DNA of 31,869 nt from a virus: IMG/VR virus record IMGVR_UViG_3300045988_093262; one strand, given 5' to 3'. The position numbers were made by a program, and so were the translations under genes. Below are positions 725 to 22,130 of this stretch, one piece after another; positions within the stretch are counted from its first letter, which is position 1; each line of letters begins with the position of its first letter. Below the pieces are notes generated by a model that was given only the letters and a program-made list of their open reading frames with translations, had not been told where the DNA came from and ran no database searches.

Positions 725-1321
725 CTACTTCGAGGTCCCGGCGGTGCCTGCCTTGACGTAAATCTCAAAGGGCGGCGTGTCCTGCTTCTCCATGGAGTAG
801 TGGCCGGTGAACTCGAACTCGAACTGGCCCTTTGCCTTGTCGGAGGTGGTGAGCTGGAATCCGCCCGTGCTCAGGGCGTTCATGACGTGGATGGCGAGGA
901 AGCCGGCAGACTTTTCGGTGTTGATGTCGGAGTAGTCGCCCACGAACCACACATCCGCGAAGTCGTCGGCGGTGAGGTCGTTGCGCGGGACGACCTTGGT
1001 TGCGTCGGAGGAATCCTTGCTGCCGGCTCCAACGAGGGTCTTGGCGAGGTCGGCGGAGACGGTGACGAAGGTGCCGGAGAGCACGACCTCCCAGCTCTCC
1101 AACCTCTTCAGCTCCTTCATGTTCTTCGGGCAGTTGTCGATGTCCTCGCCGAAGTCCGTATACGAGGGGGTAGCGGTGAAGCTGATGCCGCCCGTGGTGG
1201 CTCCGAGGATGGAGGACTTGTCGAGGGTGGCGGTGCCAGGGGTGAAGCTGGAAGTGATGATGCCGGCGTTGAGCTGGAGCTGCTTGAAGGTGGTGGTCGG
1301 AATCTGAGTGAATGCTGCCAT
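725..1321 (-). CDS. Major tail protein
   Basis: 198 aa, rich in T, S and G, with a beta-rich composition. Lies directly upstream of the G/GT chaperones, as is typical for siphoviruses. Confidence 0.7.
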   Translation of the reverse strand: MAAFTQIPTTTFKQLQLNAGIITSSFTPGTATLDKSSILGATTGGISFTATPSYTDFGEDIDNCPKNMKELKRLESWEVVLSGTFVTVSADLAKTLVGAGSKDSSDATKVVPRNDLTADDFADVWFVGDYSDINTEKSAGFLAIHVMNALSTGGFQLTTSDKAKGQFEFEFTGHYSMEKQDTPPFEIYVKAGTAGTSK

Positions 1322-4463: not shown

Positions 4464-4665
4464 CCTGAGACTCCCACCTCGGGCAGGGCATCCCGTCATA
4501 GAGCACCCCGGCGGGCTTCCCGATTCCGTCAGAGCGTCTGTACGCGCCGCAATACGCCTTCTCCACCTCGTCGCCCCAGACGGGTTCCATGCCGGCGTGT
4601 CTGCACGTCTCGCAATACTTGGGGTTGGGCCTCTTGACGCCGAACGTCTGCGAAAGGTCGCTCAC
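4456..4665 (-). CDS. Small Cys-rich hypothetical protein (CxxC ... C ... C)
   Basis: 69-aa ORF directly downstream of the MuF-toxin gene. Contains CETC, YCG and CPRW. Confidence 0.4.
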   Translation of the reverse strand: MSDLSQTFGVKRPNPKYCETCRHAGMEPVWGDEVEKAYCGAYRRSDGIGKPAGVLYDGMPCPRWESQDE

Positions 4666-6617
4666 TTCTTTGCCTCCTGTTGAAAAAGGTCGTAGCCGTC
4701 CTCAGGGTGGAGTTCCATGTCGATGTAATACTTCCCACCCTGGTGCTCAATCTTAGTCACCTTGTAGGAGCCACCCCTCTGGAGGATGACCTCGAACTCG
4801 AGACCGAACCACTCTTGTCCGCTCTTGCCGTCCCACTCCAGTCCGTCGCAACCTCCATATGCGGAAAACGGCTCGGCATAGATGGCGTTGGAGCCTGCCG
4901 GGGCGTAGATGTTGATTATCACGGGCTTTCTGGCGAAGCCGTCTCCCTTCGCTGCGCTCGTGGACCAGAAGCCTCCAACCCTTCCGGAACTTCCGACAAG
5001 CTTTTGCAGCTCGTCGTCCGATAGGCTCGCGAATCCGCCGTCCTCGAGGCCGAAGAACGTGTCCATTGCGTCCGTGCCGGAACCGCGATTGAGCCACATG
5101 TCGTGCTCGTAGCTGCTCTTAGCGATGGCCTCCGTCATCTGTCGGATTTTCATCCCGTAGTGGCGAGAGTCGATGTTCACGTTTCCCGGACCCACGTAGT
5201 TCTCCCGGCCCCACCTGCCGTTCTTGAAGCCGTTCGTGGGCTGGTTCCACTCGTTGGAGTCACTGGTGTAACCGTAGAGGGAACGCTTCTGGTTGGTGGT
5301 CAGAGAGCGCCAAACCTCGCCGGCCTTTGGCCTAAGCTCTGAGTCGGCCTTCTTCTTGTCCTTGAACCACCATGCGGCGTCCTTCCTAGCCTTGGAGAAG
5401 GCGTCTGACGGCTCGGCCCTCGCGATGCCGATCGACTTCCCAAGCTTGTCAAGCTCGGCTTGGAGCCTGTCCACCTCGGAGAGCATGTCTTGGTAGCGCT
5501 TGCCGTACTTCAGGAACCTCTTGGCCTTCGGGCCGTTCGCCTTCTCCGCAAGCTTCTTGTCGTGCTCGAAGCTGTCGAAGGACCACACGAATGGCCAGAA
5601 GTCGTTCTCGTGCGCAGCCTTGAAGTCCATCGCCTTGGACCTGAGCGCGTCAAGCTCGGCGGCCTTCTGGTTGTAGCTGGAAACGGTGGTCTTCCGCTCC
5701 TTGCGCCCCTTCCACTCCTCGAAGCCCTTCCCCTTGAGCGACTTGTCGGCGGCATCGATGAGCGCCTTGGCCTCGGGCATGTCCGCGACCAGCGTGCAGC
5801 GGCAGTTGTAAACCTCCAGCCCCTGTCCGTGGGGGTCTCCCGGAAACGACAGGCCGGGAGCGAACTCGTCATCAATCGGAATCGACACGCCGTTTCTGGC
5901 TGCGTGCTCCGGTCGCGTCTTGGCGTCTCCCGTGGACAGCCACTTCTTCAGGATGACGATTCCAAGCTCCTTGGAGATTTTACGGTAGAAGTCGACCCTC
6001 CCGCCGTTCTCCGCTCCCGTGGTGGCCGTCCTCGCAACCCTGATTGCCGAACCCATGCTCATTCCCGTTGGACCTGCGATACGGTTGGCGATGCCGTCGA
6101 TTGACTCGCCTTGGAGAATCCCCTGAGTGATGGCTGAGCGGACGTGCCGGGAGTTCCAAGCGCTCGACTTGCCCTTCTTGACCTTCGGTGTCGGGTATAG
6201 CTGCGGGTTGTCCCTCATAAGCCGCTCGACGGTCGAGTGGTCGACCAGCTGGAAGCTCGTTCCCAGCCCGGTCCCGCTCTCGACCTCGTAGAGCGCTGCG
6301 TTTGCGTTGAGCGCGTAGACTTCCTCGTTGGACTTTGAGACAATCTTGGCCGCAATCTCCTCGCAAGCCTCCAAGTCGGCCCCGAGGGAGTCGGCCATGT
6401 CAGAAATCCACTGCTGTTTCGCCAGTTGCTCCCTGTTCCACTCCTTGAACTCCTCGGAGCTCAGCGACTTCTTGGCCTTTGCCAGTTCAGACTCGTACTC
6501 CGCTCCGGCCTCCTTGAGCTTGGCTTTCATTTCCGAGTAAGCCTTGGAGTAGGCCGCGTGAATCCTCTTCTCGACGGTTTTCAGCATCTTCTCGGTCTGC
6601 TCGTGCGCCTCGTCCAC
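4662..6617 (-). CDS. MuF/SPP1 gp7-family minor capsid protein fused to a C-terminal C3/VIP2-like mono-ADP-ribosyltransferase toxin domain (MuF polymorphic toxin)
   Basis: The Mu F domain motif is TRPEHAARNG...NCRCT. The C-terminus carries the R-S-E ART signatures: LYGYTSDSNEW (as in YTgSsYqeIN), an Arg, the STS motif FWSTSAA, and the ExE/ARTT motif LEFEVILQRGGSYKV (as in VIP2 EKEVLLDRGSKYKI). GTG start at 6617 with an AAGGGGG ribosome binding site. Confidence 0.85.
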   Translation of the reverse strand: MDEAHEQTEKMLKTVEKRIHAAYSKAYSEMKAKLKEAGAEYESELAKAKKSLSSEEFKEWNREQLAKQQWISDMADSLGADLEACEEIAAKIVSKSNEEVYALNANAALYEVESGTGLGTSFQLVDHSTVERLMRDNPQLYPTPKVKKGKSSAWNSRHVRSAITQGILQGESIDGIANRIAGPTGMSMGSAIRVARTATTGAENGGRVDFYRKISKELGIVILKKWLSTGDAKTRPEHAARNGVSIPIDDEFAPGLSFPGDPHGQGLEVYNCRCTLVADMPEAKALIDAADKSLKGKGFEEWKGRKERKTTVSSYNQKAAELDALRSKAMDFKAAHENDFWPFVWSFDSFEHDKKLAEKANGPKAKRFLKYGKRYQDMLSEVDRLQAELDKLGKSIGIARAEPSDAFSKARKDAAWWFKDKKKADSELRPKAGEVWRSLTTNQKRSLYGYTSDSNEWNQPTNGFKNGRWGRENYVGPGNVNIDSRHYGMKIRQMTEAIAKSSYEHDMWLNRGSGTDAMDTFFGLEDGGFASLSDDELQKLVGSSGRVGGFWSTSAAKGDGFARKPVIINIYAPAGSNAIYAEPFSAYGGCDGLEWDGKSGQEWFGLEFEVILQRGGSYKVTKIEHQGGKYYIDMELHPEDGYDLFQQEAKK

Positions 6618-11756: not shown

Positions 11757-12548
11757 CTAGGACTTCTTCAGGATTGAGACAATCGTTCCAATCCTTCTCT
11801 CGGCCTTGTCCAGAACGCGGTCGATTATCTCACGTCCTCGAATCTCTGAAAGCCACTCTTCGTTGACTCCACCGTAGAAGATTGCCGCCAAGGCCCCAGC
11901 CACGCAGGCGTTCGTGTCCGTGTCCCCTCCGAGGTTCACGGCGTTTAGCACGGCGTCATCGAAAGACTCCGAACTCTCGAGTGCCCAGAGCGCGGCGTCC
12001 ACCGTGTCCCAGCAGTAGCCGCCGGCAACCTCGGGGCACTTCGTTGGAAAGTCTGCCATTTCGCCGTATTCCATTCTTTCTGTGAAGTCATACAGGAAGC
12101 CGCAGGCACCCATGCTCTCCGGGCTTCCGTGCGTCGCTCCGAGAGACCTCATAGCCTCGCCCCTATAGACCGGGAGTATCGCCAACGGGACGCAGCGCAT
12201 GACGGCACCGTTTCCGGAGTCCAGACGGTGGCACTGAGGCTTGCCCGTGTCTATGGCCCTAGCGGTTGTCATTCCCACGTCAAATATTCCGTCGACCGTG
12301 TATTCCTCGTCGTGGAGCCAGCGGCGGAAGTAGGACATGACGTCCTCTAGGCTCCCGGTGTCCGCCCAACAATCAAGCTCGGCAAGAATCATTGAGGTAT
12401 CGTCGCTCCAAGTGCCGGCGGGCTTGTTGTGGGAGCCGTAGCCCGTCATCCCGTGGCACTCGAAGCTACCGCGGGGCCTGAACTCATAGGGCACCCCCAT
12501 CGCGTCGCCGATGGCCGCCCCGTAGACGCATTGTCTCAGAAATCCCAT
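11757..12548 (-). CDS. ADP-ribosylglycohydrolase (DraG/ARH family)
   Basis: Motifs GAAIGDAMGVPYEF, AGTWSDDTSM and NLGGDTDTNACVAGALAAI (the GGDTDT signature). A strong AAAGGAGAGG ribosome binding site lies upstream of ATG 12548. The ORF is open in frame up to 12632. Confidence 0.8.
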   Translation of the reverse strand: MGFLRQCVYGAAIGDAMGVPYEFRPRGSFECHGMTGYGSHNKPAGTWSDDTSMILAELDCWADTGSLEDVMSYFRRWLHDEEYTVDGIFDVGMTTARAIDTGKPQCHRLDSGNGAVMRCVPLAILPVYRGEAMRSLGATHGSPESMGACGFLYDFTERMEYGEMADFPTKCPEVAGGYCWDTVDAALWALESSESFDDAVLNAVNLGGDTDTNACVAGALAAIFYGGVNEEWLSEIRGREIIDRVLDKAERRIGTIVSILKKS

Positions 12549-12647
12549 TCCTAGCCCCTCTCCTTTCGCAGTTCGAACTTGATGAAGTCTTGGACGTACT
12601 CCAAAAGCGCCTCCATGCGCTCGGGCAACCACTCGAAGATGTTCTCG

Positions 12648-13930: not shown

Positions 13931-14006
13931 TGGTGCGCGGGGCGGGACTCGAACCCGCAGCCTGCTGCTTAGGAGGCAGCCGCTCTGTCCGTTGGGCTAC
14001 CCGCGC
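13931..14006 (-). tRNA. tRNA-Arg (anticodon CCU)
   Basis: 76 nt read on the minus strand. Acceptor stem GCGCGGG/CCCGCGC. Anticodon stem GCTGC/GCAGC with loop CUCCUAA, giving anticodon CCT. T arm GCGGG-TTCGAGT-CCCGC. Discriminator A followed by CCA. Confidence 0.8.
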
Positions 14007-15125: not shown

Positions 15126-15344
15126 CTACTCCTCTTCCTCCTCCTCGGGGTAGGAGATGTCGTCGCACTCGAACCAGACGAAATCATTGACGTCCGTCTC
15201 GGTCGGGATTTCGTCGACGAACATGTCCTCGATTCGCGCGCATACCAACTGGCGCTGCTCCTCGGTGGCGTCGTCCATTCTCGCCTTGGCCACTCCCCAG
15301 AACTCGAAATCCTCTGGGTCAACATCGCGCTTGACAATCATTTC
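15126..15344 (-). CDS. Hypothetical acidic protein (C-terminus ...YPEEEEEE)
   Basis: An internal Met (MIVKRDVDPEDFEFW...) gives about 72 aa. Confidence 0.35.
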   Translation of the reverse strand, partial: EMIVKRDVDPEDFEFWGVAKARMDDATEEQRQLVCARIEDMFVDEIPTETDVNDFVWFECDDISYPEEEEEE

Positions 15345-15366
15345 CGTTCTCCTCTCTTTCCGAACT

Positions 15367-15600
15367 CTACTGGAAAAGGCCATGCTTCTGGTAGTCGCTG
15401 ACATATGCGAGCTTGACGCCAATCACCGCCGCTATGTCTCTGGTGGTAGGCTCCTCGAAGGTCCGGTAGCCCTTGCGCCTCAGCGCCTTGCTCGCCGCCC
15501 TCGTGATGCCCTTGGCCGTCGTCGCCCGGCTTGTGAAGTACGTGTGCGCAGAATCAAAGCTGTTCGGGCGAATGCTGACCTCGACGTAGTATGTATCCAT
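15367..15600 (-). CDS. Small DNA-binding (HTH-like) protein
   Basis: 77 aa. The segment TRDIAAVIGVKLAYVSDYQK is HTH-like. Confidence 0.35.
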   Translation of the reverse strand: MDTYYVEVSIRPNSFDSAHTYFTSRATTAKGITRAASKALRRKGYRTFEEPTTRDIAAVIGVKLAYVSDYQKHGLFQ

Positions 15601-15609
15601 TTTCCCCTC

Positions 15610-15909
15610 CTAGAGGCCGAGCATGACCTTGACAGCAGTCCACTTGAGGTCGGCCTCGGCGGCGGCAAAGTCGAACCTTGCGTTGATGTTCTTGTCGTAC
15701 TCCTCGCGCTTCTCCTCGGAGAGGGCGTCCCATTCCTCGTCGGTGAAGTCGGCATCGATGTGCGCATACAGGAACAGACCGCGAACGTTGTCTATGTCCC
15801 TGCTGGGCATGCTATCGTTGCTGCCGCTCCAAGAGAGGTGCTTCTCCAGCAGCATCTTGACGGCATCGTTGTGGGGCTGGTCCTCGTTCCTGTAGGTGAG
15901 CTTCTTCAT
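15610..15909 (-). CDS. Hypothetical protein
   Basis: 99-aa ORF immediately after promoter cassette copy 3. Confidence 0.45.
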   Translation of the reverse strand: MKKLTYRNEDQPHNDAVKMLLEKHLSWSGSNDSMPSRDIDNVRGLFLYAHIDADFTDEEWDALSEEKREEYDKNINARFDFAAAEADLKWTAVKVMLGL

Positions 15910-15926
15910 CTTGGTTCCCTTCTCTA

Positions 15927-15990
15927 CTTGGGGGGCCTCTCCCCCCTCGTTGGCTTATATATTACCACTACCGCGAGAAAAACAACCGAG
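15927..15990 (-). promoter_or_regulatory. Conserved promoter cassette, copy 3
   Basis: TTCTCGG, then TTGTTT, then TGGTAATAT. The hairpin GGGGGGAGAGGCCCCCC and an AGAAGGGAA ribosome binding site follow, then ATG 15909. Confidence 0.55.
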
Positions 15991-15996
15991 AAAGTC

Positions 15997-16025
15997 AAAA
16001 AAAGCCCCCCGATTTCTCGGAGGGC
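15997..16025 (-). terminator. Rho-independent terminator
   Basis: Hairpin GCCCUCCGAGAAAUCGGGGGGC followed by U7 on the minus strand. Confidence 0.6.
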
Positions 16026-16030
16026 CTGAG

Positions 16031-19990: not shown

Positions 19991-20060
19991 CCGGGGGGCC
20001 TCCCCCCTCGTTGTCTAATATATTACTACTATCCAGTTCGAAGTAAACCGAGAATCTCAG
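19991..20060 (-). promoter_or_regulatory. Conserved promoter cassette, copy 4
   Basis: TTCTCGG, then TTTACT, then AGTAATATAT. The hairpin GGGGGGAGGCCCCCC and a GGAGAAGGGG ribosome binding site follow, then ATG 19971. Confidence 0.5.
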
Positions 20061-20842
20061 TTTTTTTGCTCGCGCCTGTCAACGCCACCCTTGACGCAAA
20101 CCTTGCAGCTCCCCTTGATGCGGGAGAAAAGCGCGTCAGCCGTCCTCTTGTTGGACTCTCCAGTAACCTTGGTCCACTCGGAGGGCTTGAGCTGCGAGGT
20201 GAACAGCGTCTGGAGGTGGTGGCTCCAGCGGTAGTCGACAATAAGGAAGTACACGGACGCGGACCACTCGGTGAGGGGCGTCTTGCCCACGTCGTCGATT
20301 ATCAGCACCTCGGCCCTCTGGTATCCGAGGGTCGGGTCCGTCCCTCCGTCGAAGCTCGCCTTGATGCGGTCGAACATCTGGGCTTCGGACACGAACAGAG
20401 GGTGCTCCCCCATGCCGGCGAGGGCCTTGGCGATGGCGCAGACCGAATAGGTCTTGCCGACTCCAACGGGTCCGTGAACCCACATCCACCCCGAACCCTC
20501 GGCCCTCTCCCAGTCCGGTTCCACGTCCCGGAACTCCTCGGGGAGGTTGTCCTTGGCCCAAGTCTCCGCACGCTCCTCCCGTGTGACTTCCCCTGATGCC
20601 TCTCTGAGGCTCTGAGGGACGCTCTGAGACGTTTCGCGGCTCCACTCGGTTGCCTCCTTCGGGGACATGGTTCCGAGGGCACAGAAGCGTCCAGACTCGC
20701 AGTGAGCCATGTACTCCTCGATGCCCTCGGCATCAGTGGGCGCGTAGGTCGGTGGGATTCCGTATGCCTTGGCCACCATCTCCAGAGTCTTCCCCCACTT
20801 CATGCGGCGCTTGTAGGCTTGTTCCGGTGTCTCCTGAATCAC
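20057..20842 (-). CDS. DnaC/IstB-like helicase-loader ATPase
   Basis: Walker A GPVGVGKTY, Walker B VLIIDDVG, and an AAA+ sensor region. Confidence 0.75.
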   Translation of the reverse strand: MIQETPEQAYKRRMKWGKTLEMVAKAYGIPPTYAPTDAEGIEEYMAHCESGRFCALGTMSPKEATEWSRETSQSVPQSLREASGEVTREERAETWAKDNLPEEFRDVEPDWERAEGSGWMWVHGPVGVGKTYSVCAIAKALAGMGEHPLFVSEAQMFDRIKASFDGGTDPTLGYQRAEVLIIDDVGKTPLTEWSASVYFLIVDYRWSHHLQTLFTSQLKPSEWTKVTGESNKRTADALFSRIKGSCKVCVKGGVDRREQKN

Positions 20843-20857
20843 TGTCTTATCCTCTCC

Positions 20858-21745
20858 CTAGAACGGGATGTCCTCGTCCCAGTCGGTGCACTTCTCGTCG
20901 ATGCTCTTCCTCCACTCGGCGTCCGCCTTGGCCTTCTCGGCCCTCTCCTTGGCCTTGGGGTCCTCGGGTGCGTTGAGGTAGCCCTCGAACTTGGAGCCGA
21001 AGAGGGTCACGGGCCTCAGGTACTTAGCCATGTCGGTCCCTCCCCACTCCTCGGACTTCTTCCGGATGACCTCCTTGCAGTCCTCGACGGTGAATCCCTC
21101 TCGTAGGCGGGCTAGGACGTGGCGCATTGTGGCCTTCGAGGTCGGGCGGTAGTGGGAACCAGTCTCATTGTTGAGGGCCTGGACAACCTCGGCCACCTTG
21201 CTGCCCTCCTCCTCGTTCCATGGCCTAGAGGGTGCCGGACGCTGTGCGGAAGCCTCCTTCCGCACTATATGTTTTTGGTTTTCCTCTGAGTTATTCATTT
21301 GTATTACTTTGGTATTGCTTACCTCATTTTCGGAAATGTCATTTTGGATTTTTGCCATCCCCATTTCTGATTTTTGAGAAATGGAGATACCCTCAGAGGG
21401 GGCATCGGTTGTGCAGCTTTGCGGAGCCTGGAAAAGCCCCTCGCCCTTCTCGGTGAGCGCATACCACTTGGTGCGGTCAAACGGGAGCTTGTTGTAATTG
21501 CCCGTGACGAGAAGCCCCTCCTCCTCTGCCCTTTTGAGAGCCGTGTTTATTACATTCGCGCTCATGAAAGGCATGAGGTCATGGAATGCCGCGACCGTGT
21601 TGTAGGTCCAGTAGCGGCCATCGTGGAAGTGCTTGCCGTTCGTCTTGTTCTTCTGAATCCAGTAGTTGATATTGCCGAGGAGGATTGAGACGTTCGTCCC
21701 GTACTTGGTGGCAACCTCCACGTCAAACGTCATGTACCTAAGCAT
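20858..21745 (-). CDS. Replisome organizer or replication initiator
   Basis: The N-terminus MLRYMTFDVEVATKYGTN...INYW (Phage_rep_org_N) and the C-terminal RPTSKATMRHVLARLREGFTVEDCKEVIRKKSEEWGGTDMAKYLRPVTLFGSKFEGYL match the phage replisome-organizer N-terminal domain and conserved phage C-terminal domain. The ORF track starts at a TTG at 21757, but the first ATG at 21745 (GGAGGG ribosome binding site) is more likely. The protein ends ...TDWDEDIPF. Confidence 0.7.
   Translation of the reverse strand: MLRYMTFDVEVATKYGTNVSILLGNINYWIQKNKTNGKHFHDGRYWTYNTVAAFHDLMPFMSANVINTALKRAEEEGLLVTGNYNKLPFDRTKWYALTEKGEGLFQAPQSCTTDAPSEGISISQKSEMGMAKIQNDISENEVSNTKVIQMNNSEENQKHIVRKEASAQRPAPSRPWNEEEGSKVAEVVQALNNETGSHYRPTSKATMRHVLARLREGFTVEDCKEVIRKKSEEWGGTDMAKYLRPVTLFGSKFEGYLNAPEDPKAKERAEKAKADAEWRKSIDEKCTDWDEDIPF
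21266..21390. repeat. AT-rich region with TTTTGG(A/T)TTTT repeats inside the replisome-organizer gene; candidate origin of replication
   Basis: The local GC content drops sharply. Repeats include gtttttggtttt, cattttggatttttgcc and tttctgatttttgag. Confidence 0.45.
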
Positions 21746-21757
21746 TTTGCCCTCCAA

Positions 21758-21795
21758 AAGAAAAAAGCCCCCGCGGGGTGATTAGGGCACCCGGC
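21758..21795 (-). terminator. Intrinsic terminator or attenuator immediately upstream of the replisome-organizer ribosome binding site
   Basis: Minus strand has a GC-rich stem GCCC..CACCCCGCGGGGGC followed by UUUUUUCUUUU. Confidence 0.5.
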
Positions 21796-21840
21796 AAAGG
21801 CTTTTCTCTGGATGGCGAGGCTCGGCCCCGCGTGGAAACT

Positions 21841-21869
21841 ATTCTATCGCGGCCCTAATCCGCTGTCAA
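21841..21869 (-). promoter_or_regulatory. Canonical sigma70-type promoter (TTGACA, 17 nt, TAGAAT), with an imperfect inverted repeat around the -10
   Basis: Minus strand has TTGACA at 21869-21864, a 17-nt spacer, and TAGAAT at 21846-21841. A second TATAAT lies just upstream at 21872-21877. The inverted repeat GGCCCCGCG (21824-21832) and CGCGGCCC (21848-21855) flanks the -10 and the +1 position. Confidence 0.6.
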
Positions 21870-21872
21870 CAA

Positions 21873-22130
21873 TTATAGACCATTCTTGTGGAAGTCAAAA
21901 GGGCTTTGGGTGGAATCCTCGACCCCGAGTAGCCATGCGGCCCCGAACTCGGGGAACGCTTCGCTGAGGCGGATGGCCTGCCATGCCGACAGTCTGTAGT
22001 CGCCCTTCTTGAGGTGTGACATGGTCGGGGCTGATATCGCGGTCTCCCTCTCCACCTCAGAGGGGGAATGGACTGTGAGGAACGCGGCAATCCGCGCGGA
22101 AACCAACCTTCTGTGCTCAATCTCGTTCAT
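21873..22130 (-). CDS. XRE/Cro-like HTH transcriptional regulator
   Basis: ETAISAPTMSHLKKGDYRLSAWQAIRLSEAF is an HTH. The gene lies immediately upstream of the promoter and its inverted repeat. Confidence 0.6.
   Translation of the reverse strand: MNEIEHRRLVSARIAAFLTVHSPSEVERETAISAPTMSHLKKGDYRLSAWQAIRLSEAFPEFGAAWLLGVEDSTQSPFDFHKNGL

Follow-up and report, generated by a model that had tools for sequence, protein, structure and literature searches.

In P4, the CI RNA pairs with seqA and seqC, which lie on the same strand, and terminates transcription before the replication genes (as summarized in PMC4825925). By analogy, this immunity system appears to be functionally the closest one to the element described here, the leader of the replication genes in the IMG/VR virus record IMGVR_UViG_3300045988_093262. 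The stretch analysed is 31,869 nt long (the window, to which all coordinates refer unless a contig is named), and the genes in the part studied are read on its minus strand. The leader contains a promoter (P2), a hairpin within the spacer of this promoter (hairpin A) and a terminator hairpin (T) just before the gene for a replication organizer (rep), and the loops of A and T are complementary to each other.

RNA-based control of immunity or replication is known in a few Gram-negative elements (P4, P1/P7 and N15) and in plasmids, but to our knowledge there are hardly any accounts of it for phages of gut Clostridia. The c4 RNA of P1/P7, on which Citron & Schuster are said to have reported in 1990, is reportedly an antisense RNA from the same transcript as its targets, in which compensatory differences in loop and target give heteroimmune types. 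The kissing loops of ColE1 RNA I and RNA II, treated by Lee & Crothers in 1998, are said to be 7 nt long and fully complementary. In lambda, tR1 is a Rho-dependent terminator that is overcome by N at nut. In pT181, binding in attenuation begins via a kissing hairpin (PMC3753616), Gifsy-1 IsrK has a short form whose target is the read-through form of the same RNA (PMC4825925), and the terminator loops of small RNAs (sRNAs) are able to drive regulation (PMC11979758).

Complementary loops in the rep leader

A repeat search of the window returned a perfect 9-bp inverted repeat consisting of GATTAGGGC (21860-21852) and GCCCTAATC (21788-21780). The first 9-mer is the 7-nt loop and closing pair of hairpin A and the second is the same part of T (GGGUG-CCCUAAU-CACCC), so that the A loop AUUAGGG is exactly complementary to the T loop CCCUAAU over 7 nt, or 9 nt with the closing pairs. 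Both hairpins lie on the same (sense) strand, 72 nt apart in the window and 69-73 nt apart across loci. As hairpin A is located upstream of the P2 start, it is present only in RNA that was begun upstream of P2.

About 27 related contigs were gathered by twelve protein look-ups and pattern scans and yielded 16 distinct leaders (alignment A2), in which the order of elements is constant: TATAAT, TTGAC[A/C], hairpin A, a -10 of the form TAnnAT, the stem-loop SL1, T with its U-tract, the ribosome-binding site (RBS) and ATG. In addition to AUUAGGG/CCCUAAU, the A and T loops occur as GUUAGGG/CCCUAAC, GUUGGGG/CCCCAAC, GUAGGAG/CUCCUAC, GUAGCGG/CCGCUAC, GUAGCGU/ACGCUAC and GUGAGGU/ACCUCAC, and in a GUAGGG/CCCUAC lineage both loops are shorter by one base together. 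Loop-loop pairing is Watson-Crick in 108 of 109 cells of the alignment (99.1%), six of the seven loop pairs have changed on both sides with no one-sided changes, and none of 500 column shuffles reached the same covariation score. When the partner was slid by 1-3 columns as a control, pairing fell to 30-59%. In the related phages the two loops have changed jointly on at least eight occasions. No other segment of the leader varies as much as the loops do (62-63% pairwise identity, with nine variants of A and eight of T), while the stems flanking them share 91-98% pairwise identity and the stem of hairpin A is paired in 98%. Complementary loops of two hairpins are thus kept by compensatory change, as in kissing loops, although the pairing itself is a prediction.

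As a negative control, the stem pattern of T was matched in metagenomes and genomes. Among 29 unrelated terminators with this pattern, none had a complement of its loop within 110 nt upstream, compared with four of four new family members. A scan of IMG/VR with the promoter-spacer pattern gave 11 matches by chance in unrelated sequences, and in none of them was the loop of a terminator complementary. When the window and 70 more distant rep loci were searched with a covariance model built from the leader, no further homologs emerged. The window and all loci were likewise examined for a trans target or a third copy of the loop sequence; chance 7-mers turned up sporadically, and A and T were the only consistent copies. 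Taken together, comparison of the leaders gives good support to selected RNA-RNA pairing between the two loops. This covarying complementarity between promoter spacer and terminator, which is the decisive feature, was missing from the features listed in an earlier note on this DNA.

That note had placed a TTGACA-17-TAGAAT promoter, rare for the genome, directly after a gene for a "Cro-like" helix-turn-helix (HTH) protein, with a second TATAAT in tandem just upstream. The promoter is present on the minus strand and is the sole match to the sigma-70 consensus at 11/12 positions or better in the window, where 0.04 are expected per window by first-order Markov simulation. Its critical -35 and -10 positions are invariant in all 16 leaders; the -10 itself varies (TAGAAT, TAAGAT, TATAAT, TAAAAT, TAACAT) but retains T1, A2, A5 and T6. 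With a -35, a 17-nt spacer (within the usual 16-18 nt) and a -10, P2 has the composition of a sigma-70 (sigma-A) promoter and is predicted to be active. The tandem TATAAT was also found and is kept in 16 of 16 leaders, even where the preceding coding sequence differs or the stop codon is elsewhere. No conserved -35 partner for it occurs in the leader alignment. It could possibly be the -10 of a second promoter, P1, or an A/T-rich UP-like element; as a -10 it would put the start of P1 transcripts at the base of hairpin A. As for the gene before the promoter, the position given was correct, but the HTH identity of its 85-aa product is weak (HTH_26/HTH_37, Pfam E ~0.2).

Downstream of P2, the GC-rich hairpin followed by U6CU4 that had been noted ~70 nt from the promoter and just before the rep RBS was confirmed, ~70-75 nt downstream of P2, and is conserved in the 16 leaders. 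The T stem folds to ~20 bp with a core of -19.5 kcal/mol, and an A-tract (21808-21802) can lengthen it by A-U pairing with the U-tract. The 97-nt leader as a whole folds at -46.8 kcal/mol (z = -3.5; none of 200 shuffles equally stable). A bulge in the stem caused T to be missed by a simple terminator scan. Across the 16 leaders, four pairs of the T stem have changed on both sides, and several of its G.U pairs would turn into A.C if the other strand were transcribed, which points to an RNA structure of the sense strand. With a stable GC-rich hairpin and an immediate U-tract, T is predicted to be an intrinsic (Rho-independent) terminator. SL1 is 97.9% paired, and its changes are one-sided G-C/G-U changes.

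Paired loops were additionally observed outside this family. Three unrelated phage groups with a Phg_2220_C-type rep have two hairpins with complementary 7-nt loops just before rep (Table 1). Their loops are CUGUGCC/GGCACAG, CUUGCUC/GAGCAAG (with a variant GGGCAAG that retains a G.U pair) and GGUCAAG/CUUGACC. No loop variation was seen among the available relatives of these groups, which we regard as a lead only and a possible sign that the two-hairpin design is more general.

A possible attenuation mechanism and its alternatives

On balance, we lean towards reading the leader as a sense-strand kissing-loop attenuation module that controls the replication genes of the phage. The earlier note's suggestion of an attenuator in the form of an sRNA or a short leader that is terminated would be the right general idea, given a conserved near-consensus promoter and a conserved intrinsic terminator before rep. 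In such a module, P2 transcripts would start after A and stop at T, giving an abundant ~73-nt RNA (SL1 and T) that would present the T loop on a long stem, the classic geometry of an antisense regulator. Transcripts reading through from the early operon, or started at the upstream TATAAT, would carry hairpin A, and on such a nascent long transcript the loops of A and T would form a kissing complex in cis. This pairing would delay nucleation of the terminator and allow read-through into rep, whereas the short RNA in trans would occupy A on the long transcripts, cancel the cis effect and restore termination. The short RNA would then be a dosage-dependent and type-specific repressor of read-through into rep and the dnaC-like gene, similar to an immunity or incompatibility determinant. 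In minimum-energy folds of transcripts truncated just past the T loop, a helix between A and the T loop forms in four of four loop types before the 3' arm of the terminator is made. This helix spans 7-9 bp (duplex energy -7.4 to -9.7 kcal/mol) and leaves the lower terminator stem unsequestered. The direction in which loop pairing affects termination is a guess.

Type-specific determinants of immunity or incompatibility must avoid cross-talk among co-infecting relatives, and this would account for the many loop specificities. More tentatively, we suggest that the leader represents a distinct trans-acting class, in which a nested promoter divides the leader into a target (A) and a regulator (the terminated leader) with at least eight mutually orthogonal specificities. 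A class of phage RNA regulators with its target in a spacer hairpin would be previously undescribed, although the general kind, RNA-mediated attenuation or immunity, is already known.

Several points weigh against this mechanism. The A:T helix is much less stable than the T hairpin, and a kissing complex would sterically fit a fully formed terminator, which makes the sign of the effect on termination uncertain. If P2 is constitutive, the short RNA precedes the early transcripts, so that the timing needs another input; perhaps P2 may itself be regulated, via the CCGCG/CGCGG repeat discussed below or by occlusion through read-through transcription. An immunity role lacks a lifestyle context, as neither an integrase nor a clear lysogeny module was found among the ~30 open reading frames (ORFs) scanned. 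The stem of hairpin A has just 3-4 bp with a single compensated change, and all changes in the loops are strictly Watson-Crick without G.U intermediates, for which an inverted repeat acting at the DNA level would look alike. One contig (L006, 2869-2990) carries GUUUGGG/CCCCAAC with a central, uncompensated U.C mismatch; its relatives L045 and L049 have the matched A loop GUUGGGG, and the mismatch could stem from an error in assembly or mark an escape mutant. Finally, that P2 is active, that the short RNA is made and how efficiently T terminates are all predictions from sequence.

A first alternative keeps the pairing and dispenses with the regulator in trans. A and T would make an intramolecular tertiary contact within the long early transcript, with a role in its stability, its processing or antitermination, and the diversity of the loops would be neutral compensatory drift. 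The constant distance of 69-73 nt between A and T on one strand, the helix formed in folds of the nascent transcript and the lack of a third target all agree with this. However, it leaves unexplained a near-consensus promoter whose transcripts omit A and yet end at T, and loops that are far more variable than the leader on fixed stems are the pattern of a specificity determinant and not of drift. We therefore consider a purely cis-acting contact unlikely.

Alternatively, selection could act on DNA. The 9-bp inverted copies might bind a protein of phage or host, such as a repressor looping P2 or a replication factor, with T being a plain terminator or attenuator of the early operon. Site A does lie where operators are classically found, within the spacer of the promoter, HTH genes adjoin it, CGG-N7-CCG is itself a small palindrome, and the strictly Watson-Crick loop changes would suit DNA sites as well. 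Such a protein should, however, change with its site. A column-by-column comparison of the 93-aa HTH protein (HTH93), the 85-aa protein, the downstream 55-aa HTH protein (HTH55), a 92-aa protein and Rep with loop type revealed no covariation of a recognition helix, and no residue pattern tracked loop type in the Rep N-terminal domain, the 85-aa protein or either of HTH93 and HTH55. None of the four DNA-binding proteins encoded nearby varies in step with the sites. Across loop types, the 93-aa, 85-aa and 55-aa proteins have HTH regions that barely vary, over six of these types the N-terminal domain of Rep is almost identical, and Rep is 93% identical between the window (AUUAGGG type) and L004 (GUGAGGU type); conversely, one leader type is found with two unrelated Rep N-terminal domains (L028 vs L059). 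In addition, the sites, which are separated by 72 bp, are inverted and asymmetric, the variable 7-mers fall precisely on the loops of the two conserved hairpins, of which one is a terminator, and the G.U pairs in the stems mark sense-strand RNA structures. That no nearby DNA-binding protein varies with the sites and that the 7-mers coincide with the two loops argues for selection on RNA-RNA pairing, and DNA-level sites seem quite improbable to us.

A more specific protein-based view follows one option of the earlier note: an imperfect inverted repeat would be an operator on P2, and T a tR1-like terminator that needs antitermination, here by a protein, which would make the loop complementarity incidental. 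The repeat, GGCCCCGCG/CGCGGCCC (CCGCG ... CGCGG; plus-strand 21822-21830 and 21846-21853), does exist and brackets the -10 and +1 as described, is 94% conserved and has two HTH-type genes just upstream. Yet it shows zero covariation in the 16 leaders and is broken wherever it varies, and a change in the shared arm (L012) is compensated within hairpin A (GC->UG) and not in the repeat. Its arms are best read as the 3' arm of hairpin A and the 5' arm of SL1, which gives the operator no support from the alignment, although an operator role could be played by the same DNA, perhaps alongside the RNA mechanism. Antitermination by a protein found no support either, as no antiterminator homolog of the N or Q type was detected among the ~30 ORFs scanned with Pfam and PHROGs, of which small ones of unknown function remain. 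Since the loop covariation cannot be incidental, we strongly doubt this model. Inverted repeats flanking a stretch with the -10 could also suggest an invertible or recombining segment that switches the promoter, and recombination would homogenize the repeats. With a segment of 63 bp only, no recombinase gene found and the same orientation in all ~27 assembled contigs, such a switch is extremely improbable.

Comparison with other RNA regulators

What the proposed attenuation module has in common with P4 is that the leader of a replication operon encodes both regulator and target on one strand, that pairing governs premature termination and that specificity differs between relatives (the latter two being inferred here). 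While CI is processed from the leader by RNase P and PNPase, the short RNA would have its own predicted promoter and intrinsic terminator. Furthermore, two targets (seqA and seqC) flank CI, whereas the present leader has one, inside the promoter spacer of its regulator, and P4 has no sequence or Rfam similarity to it. As in P1/P7 c4, loops of an RNA from the same transcript would pair with targets located upstream or downstream. However, c4 targets overlap the icd RBS and act on translation and polarity, as opposed to a single loop pair with a target away from the RBS.

The plasmids pT181, pIP501 and pAMbeta1 likewise have a leader with an intrinsic terminator directly before the gene for the replication initiator, and loop sequence contributes to their specificity or incompatibility. 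Their countertranscripts, in contrast, are encoded on the opposite strand and are fully complementary, as compared to a sense-strand regulator with a complementarity of 7-9 nt; accordingly, no plus-strand promoter was called in the leader region. The plasmid leaders also fold into mutually exclusive antiterminator and terminator structures; in the present leader, the A:T helix of truncated transcripts leaves the lower terminator stem free, and no classical preemptor or antiterminator helix emerged from the folds. ColE1 shares complementary 7-nt loops closed by G-C, a loop sequence that sets the incompatibility group, and replication control, but its regulator is antisense-encoded, uses three loop pairs and affects primer maturation rather than termination before rep. 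IsrK resembles the leader in that one product of a prophage promoter is a short, terminated RNA and the other a read-through mRNA, with the short RNA acting in trans on the long one (inferred for the leader). It differs by activating translation of a downstream ORF, by a single promoter for both isoforms and by the lack of a covarying loop pair. Lambda tR1 is similarly located between cro-like early genes and replication genes, although no N, Q or nut-like element was found in the region studied here. The hypervariable loops also argue against an RNA that binds RNA polymerase like HK022 put.

In Rfam, only a tRNA reached the gathering score in the window and nothing did so in four relatives. 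The C4 antisense RNA gave no match even at E<=10. The best match in E-value mode, ctRNA_p42d (RF00489), was rejected with 28.2 bits against a threshold of 50 bits; its alignment contains a 58-nt insertion and covers only the terminator base and U-tract. Matches to Thr_leader, sok and Scr3202 were considered noise. Judged by sequence and predicted structure, the leader element is thus a member of none of the known families compared.

If the short RNA does act in trans, it would define groups of exclusion or incompatibility that are encoded in RNA and that would influence how abundant phages of the human gut co-infect and recombine. Eight or nine matched loop pairs on a constant scaffold amount to a natural "mutagenesis series", which makes the mechanism directly testable by swaps and compensatory mutants. 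Should it hold, the leaders would also offer compact orthogonal kissing-loop regulators of transcription for synthetic biology, where an orthogonal set of 7x7 has been achieved with engineered derivatives of pT181 (PMC3753616). Caution is also warranted in annotation, since a hairpin within the spacer of a promoter can belong to the RNA of a read-through transcript and not be an operator.

Genomic context and further features

The features of the locus are collected in Table 1.

Table 1 Positions of the leader elements, of neighbouring features and of paired loops in unrelated phage groups
Feature	Position	Strand	Remarks
P2 -35, TTGACA	21869-21864	minus	98% pairwise identity in relatives; 17-nt spacer follows
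P2 -10, TAGAAT	21846-21841	minus	predicted start ~21834/21833
TATAAT directly upstream of -35	21877-21872	minus	overlaps stop codon of 85-aa ORF
Hairpin A, GCGG-AUUAGGG-CCGC	21863-21849	minus	inside P2 spacer; loop 21859-21853
SL1, GCGGGGC-CGA-GCCUCGC	21831-21815	minus	5' end of P2 transcript; by fold
Terminator hairpin T, core	21801-21767	minus	lower stem GCCUUUGC/GCGGGGGC, upper stem GGGUG/CACCC, loop CCCUAAU 21787-21781
U-tract, U6CU4	21766-21756	minus	conserved; RBS GGAGG directly adjoins
85-aa ORF	22130-21873	minus	last gene of early operon; stop TAA 21875-21873 inside TATAAT
Replication organizer (rep) with RBS	20858-21755	minus	RBS GGAGG 21755-21751, ATG 21745
DnaC/IstB-like helicase loader	20057-20842	minus	next gene of replication module; PF01695 2.9e-15, phrog_50 4e-31
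Conserved terminator after lysin gene	23890-23867	minus	GCGGACGUGCC..ACGUCCGC + U6; late operon
Conserved weak promoter, TTGTTA-17-TAATAT	23847-23819	minus	downstream of late-operon terminator
Palindrome GTTGTTAAAAAATAACAAC	23848-23830	minus	overlapped by weak promoter
Paired loops, unrelated group	L101 ~985-1090 (= L142-L144)		
Paired loops, unrelated group	L130 ~860-925 (= L145-L153)		
Paired loops, unrelated group	L098 ~940-1040		

The weak promoter at 23847-23819 is the likely start of an early operon that would read into hairpin A, and the palindrome that it overlaps differs in sequence among relatives with palindromy kept (e.g. TTATTAAAAAATAATAA), making it a candidate operator for the HTH proteins. 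The early operon is tightly packed with small ORFs, RusA, the 93-aa protein, which is a real HTH protein, and the 85-aa ORF, whose product shows 66-94% conservation among relatives. As no T-run of 5 or more is found between the early promoter and hairpin A, early transcripts should carry A and then meet T. A leader peptide was not apparent, the sense strand of the leader having no ATG or GTG with an RBS, and a 51-aa plus-strand ORF is antisense and was taken as spurious.

The rep product matches Phg_2220_C (5.7e-28) and phrog_428, replication initiation (1e-46). Its N-terminal (DNA-binding) domain is swapped among phages with the same leader (L028:3001-3921 vs L059:3001-3891 and L045), with the C-terminal Phg_2220_C domain and the DnaC-like gene conserved despite the swap and the mosaic breakpoint at the leader end. 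Hundreds of Rep homologs occur in gut assemblies of Logan/ENA, on contigs of 28-35 kb. A DNA search of cultured phages gave no relatives of the region, and scans of GTDB genomes with protein patterns and the terminator pattern found no family member, so that neither a prophage nor a host could be assigned. Judged by TerL, the nearest relatives in culture are phages of Butyrivibrio, Flavonifractor and Faecalibacterium (44-50% identity), and one contig of the family derives from a human-gut assembly. Based on these two observations, the host is probably a high-GC clostridial bacterium of the gut, for which the TTGACA/TATAAT consensus would be appropriate. The idea of a phage-plasmid was dropped as TerL has no close plasmid relatives.

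Elsewhere in the window, a phage-encoded tRNA-Arg (anticodon CCT; 13931-14006, minus) is located between the Erf-like and single-stranded DNA-binding protein (SSB) genes. The sole long ORF on the opposite strand (15157-16029, plus; 290 aa) is a putative gene with no Pfam or PHROG match, and a terminator-like hairpin lies at it (16027-16002, minus). A Mu-F-like head morphogenesis protein (4662-6617, minus) is fused to an ADP-ribosyltransferase exoenzyme domain (PF03496, 4e-15), and a separate ADP-ribosylglycohydrolase is encoded at 11757-12632, minus (PF03747, 1e-41). Perhaps these two may represent a virion-delivered toxin with its antidote or reversal enzyme.

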